Counted from the stretch's first letter, positions 3,517 to 7,954 are shown. The stretch is DNA of 24,000 nt from Chlamydia trachomatis (GCA_945870925.1 CAMBTZ010000001.1:6448-30447), one strand, 5' to 3'. The notes: generated by a model from the letters alone, not told the origin. Made by a program: numbers and translations.

Positions 3517-4409
3517 ATATACTCCCTTTTGTAACGATACTTATTTTAGTGATCTCCCTTACAATCTCCTCTTTTTTTGGAGGGTATAAGGAAAGTTCCT
3601 ATGCAAAAATTGGATCTACAGGCCTGATTAGCGCCTTTCGTCTGGCTAGAAATTCCGCTGAAGAGACAAGACTTCTTAATTATGCGAAAACTCTAACACC
3701 CGAAACACAAGAAACAGCTGAAAAACCTGAAAAGCCTGAAAAAAAGCAAGCCCCACCAAAAGTTCGAAAAAATAGAGAGAAATCATTTAGAGAAAATATT
3801 ACAGAAAACTCTAAATTCAATCTTGCTCCTCTTTTAAAGGAAGATGATCCCTTTCTTGAAGATGTATTCACTAAACTTCTAATTGAGATCTATCAAAACA
3901 CCGATCTGGCTATTGATTATAAATATGATAAAAAAGAACTTCCAAAACTTCTTGTTAAGGAAATTTTGCTATCTGCAAGAAAGGGATCCTTTGCCGAACC
4001 GATTGAATTTGAAATGATCGTCCTTCCAAATAAAGGTCTCCACGAGATTTGGTATAAAATGCTAAAAGGTTCCCCTAACTACCCAGACAAGGCGAGCTGG
4101 CCCCCTATCTCAAGATTTGTCATCCTAAAAGAGATTAAGGACAAAAAAGTAGTAGCTGCAAAAAAAGCCTCCATCCCCCTCCTTAAAGCCTTCTTCGGTA
4201 ACGACATCACAACTGCTATACTTGAAAAAGAAAAAGAAGGAGTACTCACAAAAACCGAAATGGACACCTTCCTTGAAACTCTTGGCGTCGATCCCATCAA
4301 AAAAAACTACCTCCACTACGGCTATAGCAAAAAACTCCGCCGCACCGAATCAGAAAAGGACCCCACCACCGGCATCACCGCTACCCTCTCCTACTCCACC
4401 CAAAAATAG
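3513..4409 (+). CDS. Membrane-anchored hypothetical protein, translationally coupled to the pseudopilin-like gene (possible minor-pseudopilin/GspK-like role)
   Basis: 298 aa. There is an N-terminal TM helix (MNILPFVTILILVISLTISSFF) without Glu+5, then a charged low-complexity stretch (AEKPEKPEKKQAPPK). It has a 4-nt overlap with the upstream gene. The 3' third switches to C-ending codons. Confidence 0.55.
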   Translation: MNILPFVTILILVISLTISSFFGGYKESSYAKIGSTGLISAFRLARNSAEETRLLNYAKTLTPETQETAEKPEKPEKKQAPPKVRKNREKSFRENITENSKFNLAPLLKEDDPFLEDVFTKLLIEIYQNTDLAIDYKYDKKELPKLLVKEILLSARKGSFAEPIEFEMIVLPNKGLHEIWYKMLKGSPNYPDKASWPPISRFVILKEIKDKKVVAAKKASIPLLKAFFGNDITTAILEKEKEGVLTKTEMDTFLETLGVDPIKKNYLHYGYSKKLRRTESEKDPTTGITATLSYSTQK

Positions 4410-4478
4410 AGGGTCAGACCTGCAAGGTTGCAAGTTAACACTTCAAACTTGCAACCTTGCAGGTCTGACCCTCTATTT
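4404..4478. repeat. Palindromic hairpin element, copy 1 (65-bp core 4409-4473; flanks extend the arms to 33 bp); probable bidirectional terminator between convergent genes
   Basis: GAGGGTCAGACCTGCAAGGTTGCAAGTT, loop AACACTTCA, then AACTTGCAACCTTGCAGGTCTGACCCTC: perfect 28-bp arms. The flanking AAATA/TATTT extend pairing and contain both stop codons (TAG 4407-4409 on the plus strand, TAA 4479..4477 on the minus strand). On the minus strand the hairpin is followed by UAUUUUU. Confidence 0.9.
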
Positions 4479-5622
4479 AGCGGAGAAAGCTGATGTGAAA
4501 GGTGGTTCCAACTCCAGGAGTTGAGGTGACCCAGATTTTTGCGTCGTGTTTATCCATGATGATTTTAACAATGGAGAGGCCGATGCCGGCGCCGCCAAGT
4601 CTTCGCGAGTGAGTTTTGTCGACGGTGTAAAAACGATCAAAAATTCTTTCCCATGATTCTTCCGGAATGCCAACGCCTTTGTCTTCAATTTGAAGATAGA
4701 CCTCATCTTCCTTTGACTCAATGGTCACTTTAATTGCTGCCGGTTTATGCGAATATTTAACGCAATTTTTTAAAATATTAATGAATGCTAGGATAAGGAG
4801 GGTCTCTTCTCCAAGTACAATTATCTCATCTTGATTATAGAATTGCTCAATATGAGTTTCGGGGTGAATAGCCAAAATTTGCTGTGCCGCTTCATCAATA
4901 AGAGCAACAAGATCGCATGGAACAAGCGATAGAGGGCCGCTATTTTCTAAGTCAGCAAGTGTGAGTAAATTCTTTACAAGCCTCTCCATTCTTTCGCAAT
5001 TTCTAATAATTTTTTCAAGTATTGACTCATACATTCCTTCTGAAACTTCTTCTAAATCTTTTAAAGTCTCTGCAAATCCTCGAATAATAGTTAATGGAGT
5101 CCTAAGTTCATGCGATGCATTAGCAATAAATTCTTTGCCGACCTCTAGAATTTTTTGTTCATTTGAGCAATCTTTTAATAATAAAATCACCCCTTCTGCT
5201 TGTGGGATTGGAATTGCGATTAATTCAAAATGCATCTTTAAAAGTTCATTTAACACCACATGTGAATGAGCTCTCTCTTTTTCATTTAACACTCGTTCAA
5301 TTAATTTTTTTGATGGTAAAGCAAGATCTTTTACAAGCGCTCTATCAAGGTCGCGATACTCTTTACCTAAAATTTTATCCTGCGCTATTCCAAGTAATGA
5401 CAACGCTTTTGAATTAACACATGAAATCCTTCCAGCACCATCTACTGTCAGGGCCCCCTCTTGCAAGTTTTCTAAAAGGGCTCTTTTTTCAAGGCGCAAA
5501 AGATCTGCCCCCTTTCCAAAAAGGGCCGCACGATCTGCCATTTCAGTAAAATTTCTTCTAAGACTTACTATATAAAACAAGGCTGCAGCAAGGCAAACCA
5601 CTAAAATGTAGACAAATTCCAT
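4477..5622 (-). CDS. PAS-domain sensor histidine kinase (single N-terminal TM, cytoplasmic sensing)
   Basis: H-box ANASHELRTPLTIIRGF, N-box INILKNCVKYS, G1 EDKGVGIP and G2 GGAGIGLSIV are present. One N-terminal TM helix (MEFVYILVVCLAAALFYIV) is followed by a PAS-like segment (LQEGALTVDGAGRISCVNSKA). No response-regulator gene lies in the window. Confidence 0.9.
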   Translation of the reverse strand: MEFVYILVVCLAAALFYIVSLRRNFTEMADRAALFGKGADLLRLEKRALLENLQEGALTVDGAGRISCVNSKALSLLGIAQDKILGKEYRDLDRALVKDLALPSKKLIERVLNEKERAHSHVVLNELLKMHFELIAIPIPQAEGVILLLKDCSNEQKILEVGKEFIANASHELRTPLTIIRGFAETLKDLEEVSEGMYESILEKIIRNCERMERLVKNLLTLADLENSGPLSLVPCDLVALIDEAAQQILAIHPETHIEQFYNQDEIIVLGEETLLILAFINILKNCVKYSHKPAAIKVTIESKEDEVYLQIEDKGVGIPEESWERIFDRFYTVDKTHSRRLGGAGIGLSIVKIIMDKHDAKIWVTSTPGVGTTFHISFLR

Positions 5623-5660
5623 AGCTCATTATTGTACCAAACCTATATAAACTTTGGTAT

Positions 5661-6527: not shown

Positions 6528-6566
6528 CACTTCAAACTTGCAACCTTGCAGGTCTGACCCTCAAAA
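6494..6566. repeat. Palindromic hairpin element, copy 2 (65-bp core 6498-6562), same orientation as copy 1
   Basis: The core is identical to copy 1 except for the first loop base (G at 6526 versus A at 4437). The flanking TTTT/AAAA extend the stem. No U-tract follows on either strand. It lies between the co-directional ATP-grasp gene and murA. Confidence 0.9.
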
Positions 6567-6607
6567 ATGAGGATGTATATAATTGAAATTTTTCATACAA
6601 TAACAGT

Positions 6608-7954
6608 ATGGAAATTCTTAAAATTGTTGGTGGTGTTCCTTTGAAGGGGACAGTCAGGGCTTCGGGAGCTAAAAATGCGATTACGAAGATGCTTGTGGCG
6701 TCTCTTATTTCTGATAAAAAGTGCACTTTTAATAATGTTCCAAATATTACTGAAGTTGAGGTTACAGTTGAGCTTTGTCGTGAGATTGGCGCTCATGTAG
6801 AGTGGGACAGGAGCGATAAAACTCTTTCTATTGTCACAAAAGAGTTAAAGACTACTTATATTCCGCAAAGATTCTCAGGATCTAATAGAATTCCTATTTT
6901 AATGATTGGCGCTCTTTTGGGCAGGACTGAAGAGGACATTGTTGTACCAACAGTCGGTGGATGCAATATAGGAAAAAGGCCGATTACCTTTCATATCGAC
7001 GCTCTTCGCCGTCTTGGAGCGGAAGTAGAATATAGAGATATGAAAAAAGATGGCGCTTATTTTGCCCATGCTCACAAAGGTTTACAAGGCTGTATTCTAG
7101 AGCTTCCCTATCCGTCTGTTGGTGCTACAGAAAATTGCATCTTAGCTGCTTGCAGAGCTAGAGGGACAACTGTGATCAAAAATGCCGCAATTGAATGTGA
7201 AATCATTGATCTTATCCTTTTCTTGCAAAAACTCGGCGTAAATATCTATGTCGATGTTAATCGAACAATCTGTATTCAAGAGACAAAAACATTCTACGAA
7301 GTAGAACACACGGTCATCTCAGACCGAATTGAAGCAGCATCACTTGGGATGGCCGCAATTGCTACTAAAGGCAAAGTCTTTGTTGAAGGGGCTAGACAAG
7401 AAAATATGATCACCTTTCTCAATAAACTTAGAGAGATCAACGGTGGTTTTAGGGTTTTTGAACAAGGGATTGAATTTTTTTATCAAGGCCCACTAAAAGG
7501 TGGCATCCATATTGAGACTGACGTTCACCCAGGCTTTATGACCGATTGGCAGCAACCTTTTGTTGTACTTCTTACTCAAGCAGAAGGCTCCTCCATCATC
7601 CATGAAACCGTCTATGAAAACAGATTCGGCTACACTCAAACCCTTAAAGAAATGGGTGCCGATATAGAGAGCTTCACTCAGTGCCTCGGTGGTAGATCAT
7701 GCCGCTTTGCAGCACAAAACTTTGCACACTCCGTCGTTGTCAAAGGCCCCACCCCGCTTAAAGCCAAAGCGGTAGCTGTTCCTGACCTCCGCGCCGGCTT
7801 TGCCTATGTAATGGCGGCCCTCATCAGCAATGGCGAATCAACCCTCTCCAATCTTCATTACCTCGACCGTGGCTATGAATCCCTCGAGGACAAACTCTCT
7901 GCACTTGGTGCAAATATCGAAAGAACTTACATAGAAGCTGAAGTTTTAGTATAA
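6608..7954 (+). CDS. murA: UDP-N-acetylglucosamine 1-carboxyvinyltransferase
   Basis: MEILKIVGGVPLKGTVRASGAKNA... is a classic MurA N-terminus. The active-site loop VGGCNIGKRPI has Cys119 (TGC 6962-6964). 448 aa, with C-terminal ...YLDRGYE...KLSALGA. Confidence 0.93.
   Translation: MEILKIVGGVPLKGTVRASGAKNAITKMLVASLISDKKCTFNNVPNITEVEVTVELCREIGAHVEWDRSDKTLSIVTKELKTTYIPQRFSGSNRIPILMIGALLGRTEEDIVVPTVGGCNIGKRPITFHIDALRRLGAEVEYRDMKKDGAYFAHAHKGLQGCILELPYPSVGATENCILAACRARGTTVIKNAAIECEIIDLILFLQKLGVNIYVDVNRTICIQETKTFYEVEHTVISDRIEAASLGMAAIATKGKVFVEGARQENMITFLNKLREINGGFRVFEQGIEFFYQGPLKGGIHIETDVHPGFMTDWQQPFVVLLTQAEGSSIIHETVYENRFGYTQTLKEMGADIESFTQCLGGRSCRFAAQNFAHSVVVKGPTPLKAKAVAVPDLRAGFAYVMAALISNGESTLSNLHYLDRGYESLEDKLSALGANIERTYIEAEVLV

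Follow-up and report, generated by a model that had tools for sequence, protein, structure and literature searches.

Rho-dependent terminators are the least predictable signals of bacterial genomes. The Rho utilization (rut) sites of lambda tR1 and trp t' are tracts of ~80 nucleotides (nt) or more in which C exceeds G. The subject here is a set of C-rich, G-poor codon tails that resemble such sites. They occupy the 3' ends of genes in a 24,000-nt stretch of a chlamydial metagenome-assembled genome (MAG), CAMBTZ010000001.1:6448-30447 of GCA_945870925.1. This whole stretch is called the window below.

Rho targets have been described as having a 'high C, low G' composition (PMC13323073; PMC12360218). 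In Bacillus subtilis, >150 nt of C excess over G predicts Rho termination, and synonymous recoding of an open reading frame (ORF) toward excess C over >150 nt is sufficient to cause it. Termination inside B. subtilis ORFs arises because transcription outruns translation, which is called runaway transcription (PMC13323073 for these three statements). The tails are likewise C-rich, G-poor, weakly structured and located upstream of an inferred unit end, in a genome that encodes rho. At 150-450 nt, they agree in length with the '>150 nt' given for B. subtilis (PMC13323073). Unlike rut sites, they lie almost wholly in translated ORFs, are made by synonymous choice and end at the stop codon rather than in the 3' untranslated region. 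They also form a genome-wide, lineage-specific architecture, and their use by Rho is putative.

A 'purine bias' hidden code driven by Rho has been reported, by which Rho signals are avoided throughout genes (Nat Microbiol 2026, PMC13323073, available portion). There, and on the present reading in the tails too, the preference of Rho for excess C or pyrimidine constrains synonymous choice. The tails have the opposite sign locally, with a C>G tract at the 3' end of the last gene, when set against that part of the report. The hisG and lacZ tiZ1 polarity sites admit Rho inside coding sequence on ribosome-free RNA. These sites are latent and act when translation fails, whereas the tails are found at unit ends and are compositionally far more extreme.

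Position-dependent codon bias toward the stop codon is also known (PMC6892556; PMC4069614). Across 91 species, the trend at gene 3' ends is AT-rich and small (PMC6892556). The tails share with it a change of codon usage toward the stop, but they run toward C, are very large (the share of C at third codon positions, C3, rises from 0.13 to 0.5-0.87) and belong to the unit-terminal genes of one lineage. A literature search of limited reach returned no account of C-rich codon tails at operon ends.

C-rich codon tails in the window

The window is G000:C1:6448-30447, where G000 is a 1.32-Mb MAG of 153 contigs and 37% GC. Its genes were profiled in 30-codon bins for C3 and for G3, the corresponding share of G. 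Steps within genes were located by per-gene likelihood change points with 500 permutations. A preliminary description of this DNA had claimed that several genes switch to C-ending codons near their 3' ends, and the four genes it located all have a significant step (Table 1).

Table 1. Tails, hairpin copies and rho in the window. C3 is given before and after the change point.
Feature	Coordinates	Strand	C3	p	CG skew	Remark
C-rich, G-poor codon tail of the OPT oligopeptide transporter gene	210..554	+	0.29 to 0.69	≤0.002	0.58
C-rich codon tail of hypothetical gene 3513..4409	4071..4409	+	0.13 to 0.48	≤0.002	0.49
C-rich codon tail of PAS/HisKA/HATPase_c histidine kinase gene 4477..5622	4477..4629	-	0.11 to 0.54	≤0.002
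C-rich codon tail of gene 5661..6527	6255..6527	+	0.18 to 0.51	≤0.002	0.50
Weaker C-rich codon tail of murA (PF00275)	7586..7954	+	0.17 to 0.43	≤0.002
Moderate C-rich tail of VTT-domain gene 15641..16231	15827..16231	+	0.15 to 0.37	0.018	0.45
Perfect-hairpin repeat, copy 1 (65 nt)	4409..4473					Between two convergent tails
Hairpin element, copy 2 (65 nt)	6498..6562					Overlaps stop codon of 5661..6527
rho, with ~90-aa N-terminal extension	21147..22676	+				TIGR00767 match of 683.6 bits, above cut-off

The switch points proposed earlier, about 4075 in 3513..4409 and about 4625 in the kinase gene, agree with the change points. The hand count offered for 4321-4400 is exact (35 C and 11 G of 80). 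The step was also expected from about 6180 in an 'ATP-grasp' gene and from about 7500 in murA. Both tails exist and the steps lie later, at 6255 and 7586, and the ATP-grasp label is unconfirmed, as 5661..6527 has no Pfam match at E≤0.001. The argS, pgk and ntt genes, said to lack a clear switch, indeed have no C3 step in the change-point test (p 0.71, 0.21 and 0.80).

The strongest tail of the window belongs to the OPT gene, whose C3 over the last 30 codons is as high as 0.87. The whole gene is G000:C1:5106-7001, and the next gene is convergent. The gene at 3513..4409 and the kinase gene are also convergent. The VTT-domain gene closes an ntt-VTT pair. In the tails of five window genes, C3 climbs from ~0.10-0.15 to 0.5-0.87 in 30-codon bins and G3 is 0.00-0.07. 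The murA tail loses strength at its end, with C3 dropping to 0.24-0.30 in the last 30 codons. Over 150 nt, the CG skew of the OPT, 3513..4409, 5661..6527 and VTT tails (0.45-0.58) is in the top 1% of sense-strand windows, and the OPT tail has the highest of these values.

Pfam assignments were confirmed for the OPT transporter (3..554), the PAS/HisKA/HATPase_c kinase and the EPSP-synthase-fold MurA (6608..7954). The hypothetical gene at 3513..4409 has no Pfam family. A 198-aa ORF at 2162-2758 also has no Pfam family, and among the sampled congeners its ortholog is found in G002 only. Its coding strand is G-rich throughout, with a GC skew of +0.27 to +0.33 and G3 of 0.20-0.37.

Composition of the tails across the genome

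The tails are not restricted to the window. Among the 924 ORFs of at least 150 aa in G000, C3 is at least 0.35 over the last 60 codons in 80 and over the first 60 codons in 4. Tails, defined by this cut-off, are therefore present in ~9% of genes, and the gradient is not a general property of genes. With significant steps and no gradient common to all genes, the preliminary description withstands the refutation that it had set for itself. No corresponding G3-rich tail is found genome-wide in these ORFs, where G3 never rises. In the metagene of tailed genes, C3 ascends as a ramp rather than a block, beginning ~300 nt before the stop codon and peaking at 0.49, while G3 falls from 0.14 to 0.06. 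The first codon position gains a little C, and the second does not change.

The shift is clearest at four-fold degenerate sites, where A goes from 0.34 to 0.21, C from 0.16 to 0.54, G from 0.11 to 0.04 and T from 0.39 to 0.22. In two-fold purine-ending codons, G/(A+G) declines from 0.26 to 0.15. Leucine CTN codons increase from 0.6 to 0.92 and arginine CGN codons from 0.44 to 0.77. The shift to C has odds ratios of 4-8 and is uniform from one codon family to the next. Amino-acid use changes slightly, with less E, V, K and M and more L, T, P and H. On the mRNA, the rule of the tails is more C, less G and more pyrimidine. Gene bodies are only mildly purine-rich (0.518).

The tails fold weakly. 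The folding energy is -23.6 kcal per 150 nt, compared with -26.4 kcal upstream, despite the higher GC of the tails. GC-matched controls in which G and C are balanced reach -35.4 kcal per 150 nt.

Two readings based on translation were rejected. Translational optimisation would call for the same codons in highly expressed genes, and C3 is 0.14 in EF-Tu, 0.05-0.14 in ribosomal proteins and 0.11 in RpoB. A rare-codon or missing-tRNA reading is contradicted by G34 tRNAs for all four-codon boxes except arginine, which has an ACG anticodon.

A strand-specific mutational process at unit ends, resulting for example from polymerase stalling, collisions or repair asymmetry and acting without selection, is distinctly unlikely as the source. 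The near absence of change at codon positions 1 and 2 has the look of a regional bias filtered by purifying selection. However, T to C, A to C, G to C and G to A changes would be needed together, with the four-fold pyrimidine share rising from 0.55 to 0.76. These are transitions of opposite GC direction combined with transversions from purine to pyrimidine, a mixture that no single mutational bias yields. Known transcription-associated asymmetries, such as non-template deamination and transcription-coupled repair, run the other way, since they lower C on the coding strand.

A mirror of the tails is observed at gene 5' ends genome-wide. Over the first 20 codons, G3 is 0.20, against 0.14 later, and C3 is low. 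The first 30 codons of murA (6608-6697) have a G3 of 0.37 and a C3 of 0.03. Across genomes, the size of this 5' effect follows tail strength and is largest in G002 and smallest in G003.

Position of the tails in transcription units

Tails are concentrated at inferred transcription-unit ends. Where a co-directional neighbour follows within 20 nt, 2.7% of genes are tailed. The share is 17% where the co-directional gap is 60 nt or more (Fisher p 3e-8), and 32% for convergent genes separated by 20-120 nt (p 1e-12). The enrichment at unit ends is 6- to 12-fold. Where both members of an ortholog pair are operon-internal, dC is ~0 (n=117). Intermediate values are seen where operon context differs between genomes, though these pairs are few and noisy.

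The bias had been said to follow the coding strand and not replication, and this is borne out genome-wide by 42 tailed genes on the plus strand and 40 on the minus strand. It flips within ~70 nt between convergent genes, and in G002 two convergent tails change strand within ~10 nt. Replication-associated skew was rejected on the strand balance and on the flips. The ~10-nt change in G002 also argues against the mutational process introduced above. So does the spacer past the stop, which is less constrained and holds just 0.19-0.21 C, where a regional bias should equal or exceed the tail.

For ~45 nt, the spacer after tailed genes has a G content of 0.12-0.14 and a C/G of ~1.5, versus 0.16-0.18 and ~0.9 after untailed genes. 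G depletion and a mild C excess thus extend into the spacer, and the effect is not purely codon-bound. C-rich 'intergenic' patches do not serve as a clean non-coding test, because most of them are short ORFs or incomplete genes at the ends of contigs. Many C-rich patches of G000 lie at contig ends or within ~100 nt of them (e.g., C20:14413-14662, C36:11870-12141, C47:10305-10424 and C11:18601-18730). The assembly may break just past tails, possibly at repeat or hairpin elements.

An unstructured C-rich, G-poor end of the last ORF might be selected for another role in RNA or translation. Candidates are the slowing of 3' to 5' exonucleases, an unfolded stop-codon region for termination and ribosome recycling, and a template whose demand for C slows RNA polymerase in a parasite that imports nucleotides. 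Such a role is unlikely, though it has several points in its favour. Strong C enrichment ends at the stop codon, which fits a tie to the translated region, and the weak folding agrees with an unfolded end. The pattern at synonymous sites implies selection without specifying its target. The window contains ntt, for nucleotide import, which might be connected to polymerase speed. Against this, an effect of stop context needs few codons, not 50-150, and would not be limited to unit-terminal genes, and the depletion of G continues into the spacer. We know of no exonuclease-blocking role that requires avoidance of G. The 91-species trend that avoids structure near stops goes toward AT-rich codons (PMC6892556).

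Canonical intrinsic terminators, counted where a hairpin closes no more than 3 nt from a T tract, are rare in G000. They follow ~10% of unit ends, barely more than the 5% of operon-internal genes. They were discarded as an explanation, as they follow 5% of tails and the 65-nt hairpins have no canonical U tract.

Tails in related genomes

The relatives compared are MAGs of environmental Chlamydiae. G000 to G004 belong to one genus, and G006 represents a sister genus. Within the genus, the share of genes whose C3 jumps by 0.2 or more is 15% in G002, 9% in G004, 5% in G000, 1% in G003 and 0% in G001. The figure is 8.5% in G006 and 1.8% in G012. Small samples of G005, G007, G008, G010, G019, G022 and G025 give 0-5%, with 5% in G025 (19 genes) and 3.6% in G019. 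Across 36 other chlamydial loci it is 1.3%, and in non-chlamydial loci 0.8%. Tails in other chlamydial genera are weak or absent.

Several tails of the window recur on orthologs. The OPT tail is present in G002 (C3 0.77) and G001 (0.67) and missing from G003 (0.30). In G002, the kinase ortholog is tailed (0.53/0.47), the ortholog of 5661..6527 reaches a C3 of 0.80, and the VTT ortholog has a C3 of 0.57-0.70. Tail strength correlates with that in G000 at a Spearman coefficient of 0.62 for G004, 0.59 for G002, 0.36 for G001 and 0.31 for G003. Four-fold-site identity between genomes is near compositional expectation, e.g., 0.37 versus 0.34 for G000-G004 tails. Since the same genes are tailed while their synonymous sites are nearly saturated, a persistent force rebuilds the tails.

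A mutational process bound to position would also give persistence at the same genes. The sharp differences in tail strength between genomes with near-identical Rho (G002 > G004 > G000 > G001 > G003) could likewise be caused by a repair or mutator change.

Mosaic alleles, in which 3' ends were recombined from a donor with C-rich codon usage, had been suggested as well. This is a very improbable origin and is already contradicted, even though composition does change abruptly within some genes. The pattern is codon-phase specific and anchored at the stop codon, affecting the 3' end in all 80 genes and never raising G3. The metagene has a ramp and not a block. Several species have tails on the same genes at a four-fold identity equal to compositional expectation, so the pattern is kept despite near saturation. 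The codon set is not that of the highly expressed native genes, and no donor of high C3 and low G3 is evident.

The murA locus differs in spacing between genomes. From murA to the radical-SAM gene, the distance is 10 nt in G000 (7955-7963) and ~1.1 kb in G002 and G004. The additional DNA consists of short convergent ORFs in G002 (G002:C12:23863-25023) and of a co-directional gene for 358 aa in G004 (G004:C48:5092-6246). With the larger gap or the convergent neighbour the murA tail is stronger: over its last 60 codons the gene has a C3 of 0.65 in G002 and of 0.55 in G004. The G004 radical-SAM gene is itself strongly tailed, with C3 up to 0.73 in a 30-codon bin. As cases for context-dependence, murA and the radical-SAM gene are anecdotal.

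The 65-nt hairpin element

Two copies of a hairpin element are present in the window and adjoin three tails, as the preliminary description had it. In total, ~7 sites are known, all in G000, and the others are C27:1853-1938, C56:3173-3208, C32:12465-12490, C92:592-609 and C25:419-444. No copy was found in the sampled DNA of G001-G004. Several copies overlap a stop codon.

Repetitive extragenic palindromic (REP) sequences, bacterial interspersed mosaic elements (BIMEs) and miniature inverted-repeat transposable elements (MITEs) offer the closest parallel. Like these, the 65-nt hairpin is dispersed, sits at gene ends, forms a near-perfect palindrome and sometimes supplies the stop codon. It differs in its low number of copies, its confinement to one genome and its preferential location beside tails. 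Of the nine gene ends beside hairpins, seven are C-tailed, while the base rate among unit-terminal genes is 18% (binomial p 2e-4).

This association is what favours GC-biased gene conversion or recombination seeded by the hairpins, another of the explanations proposed at first. It is nevertheless scarcely credible and already contradicted. G falls in the tails, the bias is specific to strand and codon phase, and ~70 tails have no hairpin. Orthologous tails are present in the congeners, whose sampled DNA lacks the element; the tailed G002 orthologs of the kinase gene and of 5661..6527 are two such cases. The element is thus younger than the tails and not their cause. Its preference for tailed ends may reflect insertion into the spacers of unit ends.

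Rho and the tails as candidate terminators

The rho gene of the window encodes a protein with an N-terminal extension (Table 1) that is near-identical, extension included, across the five congeners. Because the extension is common to all five, it does not explain their differences in tail strength.

The first ~210 nt of rho (21147-21356), which encode the low-complexity extension, are themselves C-rich and G-poor, with a 150-nt CG skew of 0.48. The interval 21147-21425 contains 74 C and 45 G. Elsewhere, rho leaders are autoregulatory Rho targets, and the 5' end of this gene could be a putative one.

The tails are judged, with slightly better than even confidence, to be putative rut-like tracts in the last 50-150 codons of genes that end transcription units. 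They are C-rich, G-poor tracts of at least ~80 nt with weak folding and a proxy position at unit ends, in a genome that encodes rho. Loading of Rho was one of three explanations given in the preliminary description, and it is the best supported; the other two are rejected. It is favoured by the rise of C with the fall of G, the enrichment at unit ends, the weak folding, the presence of rho and the tails of congeners. The rarity of canonical intrinsic terminators, the G depletion of the spacer, the lack of any sign of translational optimisation and the precedent of B. subtilis recoding also speak for it.

The proposed mechanism starts from the compactness of the genome. With spacers of only 20-120 nt, the ~80-300 nt of C>G RNA needed by Rho would fit only inside the ORF. 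Rho would load once the RNA of the tail is free of ribosomes, either after the last ribosome has terminated or at any time if transcription outruns translation. It would then translocate and release RNA polymerase in the A/T-rich spacer just 3' of the stop codon. Termination there would avert read-through into a convergent or separately regulated neighbour. Loading within the ORF would imply that translation is uncoupled or sparse, as in runaway transcription, or that Rho loads after the last ribosome has left. The advantage per site would be small, leaving tail strength to vary among close species.

Several observations weigh against loading of Rho at the tails. A clear tail is present at just ~18% of inferred unit ends, and these ends are a proxy drawn from gene spacing and orientation alone. 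The murA gene is tailed despite having only 10 nt to the next gene, and it is apparently operon-internal. The kinase and murA tails have a 150-nt CG skew of merely 0.24-0.30; G in the first two codon positions holds the overall value of the kinase tail at 0.24. The loss of C at the stop codon counts as a further objection, since nothing would keep a rut tract from running on into the spacer: C drops from ~0.35 within the tail, where four-fold sites have 0.54, to 0.19-0.21 directly past the stop. No additional preference for YC dinucleotides is apparent. Their rise is a by-product of the overall increase in C, and the shift, equal in NYN and NRN families, is uninformative on this point. Tails and intrinsic terminators do not significantly exclude each other, the latter following 5% of terminal genes with tails and 10% of those without (p=0.44). 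Downstream hairpin strength does not differ between tailed and untailed terminal genes. G003 is nearly free of tails, yet its Rho, which carries the N-terminal extension as well, is 89% identical.

On balance, it is about an even chance that this clade of environmental Chlamydiae sets Rho terminators inside coding sequence through recoding toward C-ending, G-avoiding codons. The same even odds are given to this reading held jointly with rapid evolution of tail strength between sister species.

Implications

If the tails are Rho terminators, these would become readable from codon usage. Operon boundaries could then be obtained in uncultured, genetically intractable Chlamydiae. The tails would constitute a second, position-specific layer of the genetic code. 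They would also be a natural counterpart of the 2026 result that synonymous recoding alone can make or remove Rho termination (PMC13323073).

The synonymous pattern is so large that 'silent' sites at gene ends appear to be functional. Functional silent sites affect dN/dS tests, codon-based prediction of expression and detection of gene transfer in these lineages. The differences among congeners would provide a natural system for learning what sets the reliance on Rho or, if the mutational alternative is correct, a new strand-specific mutational process.

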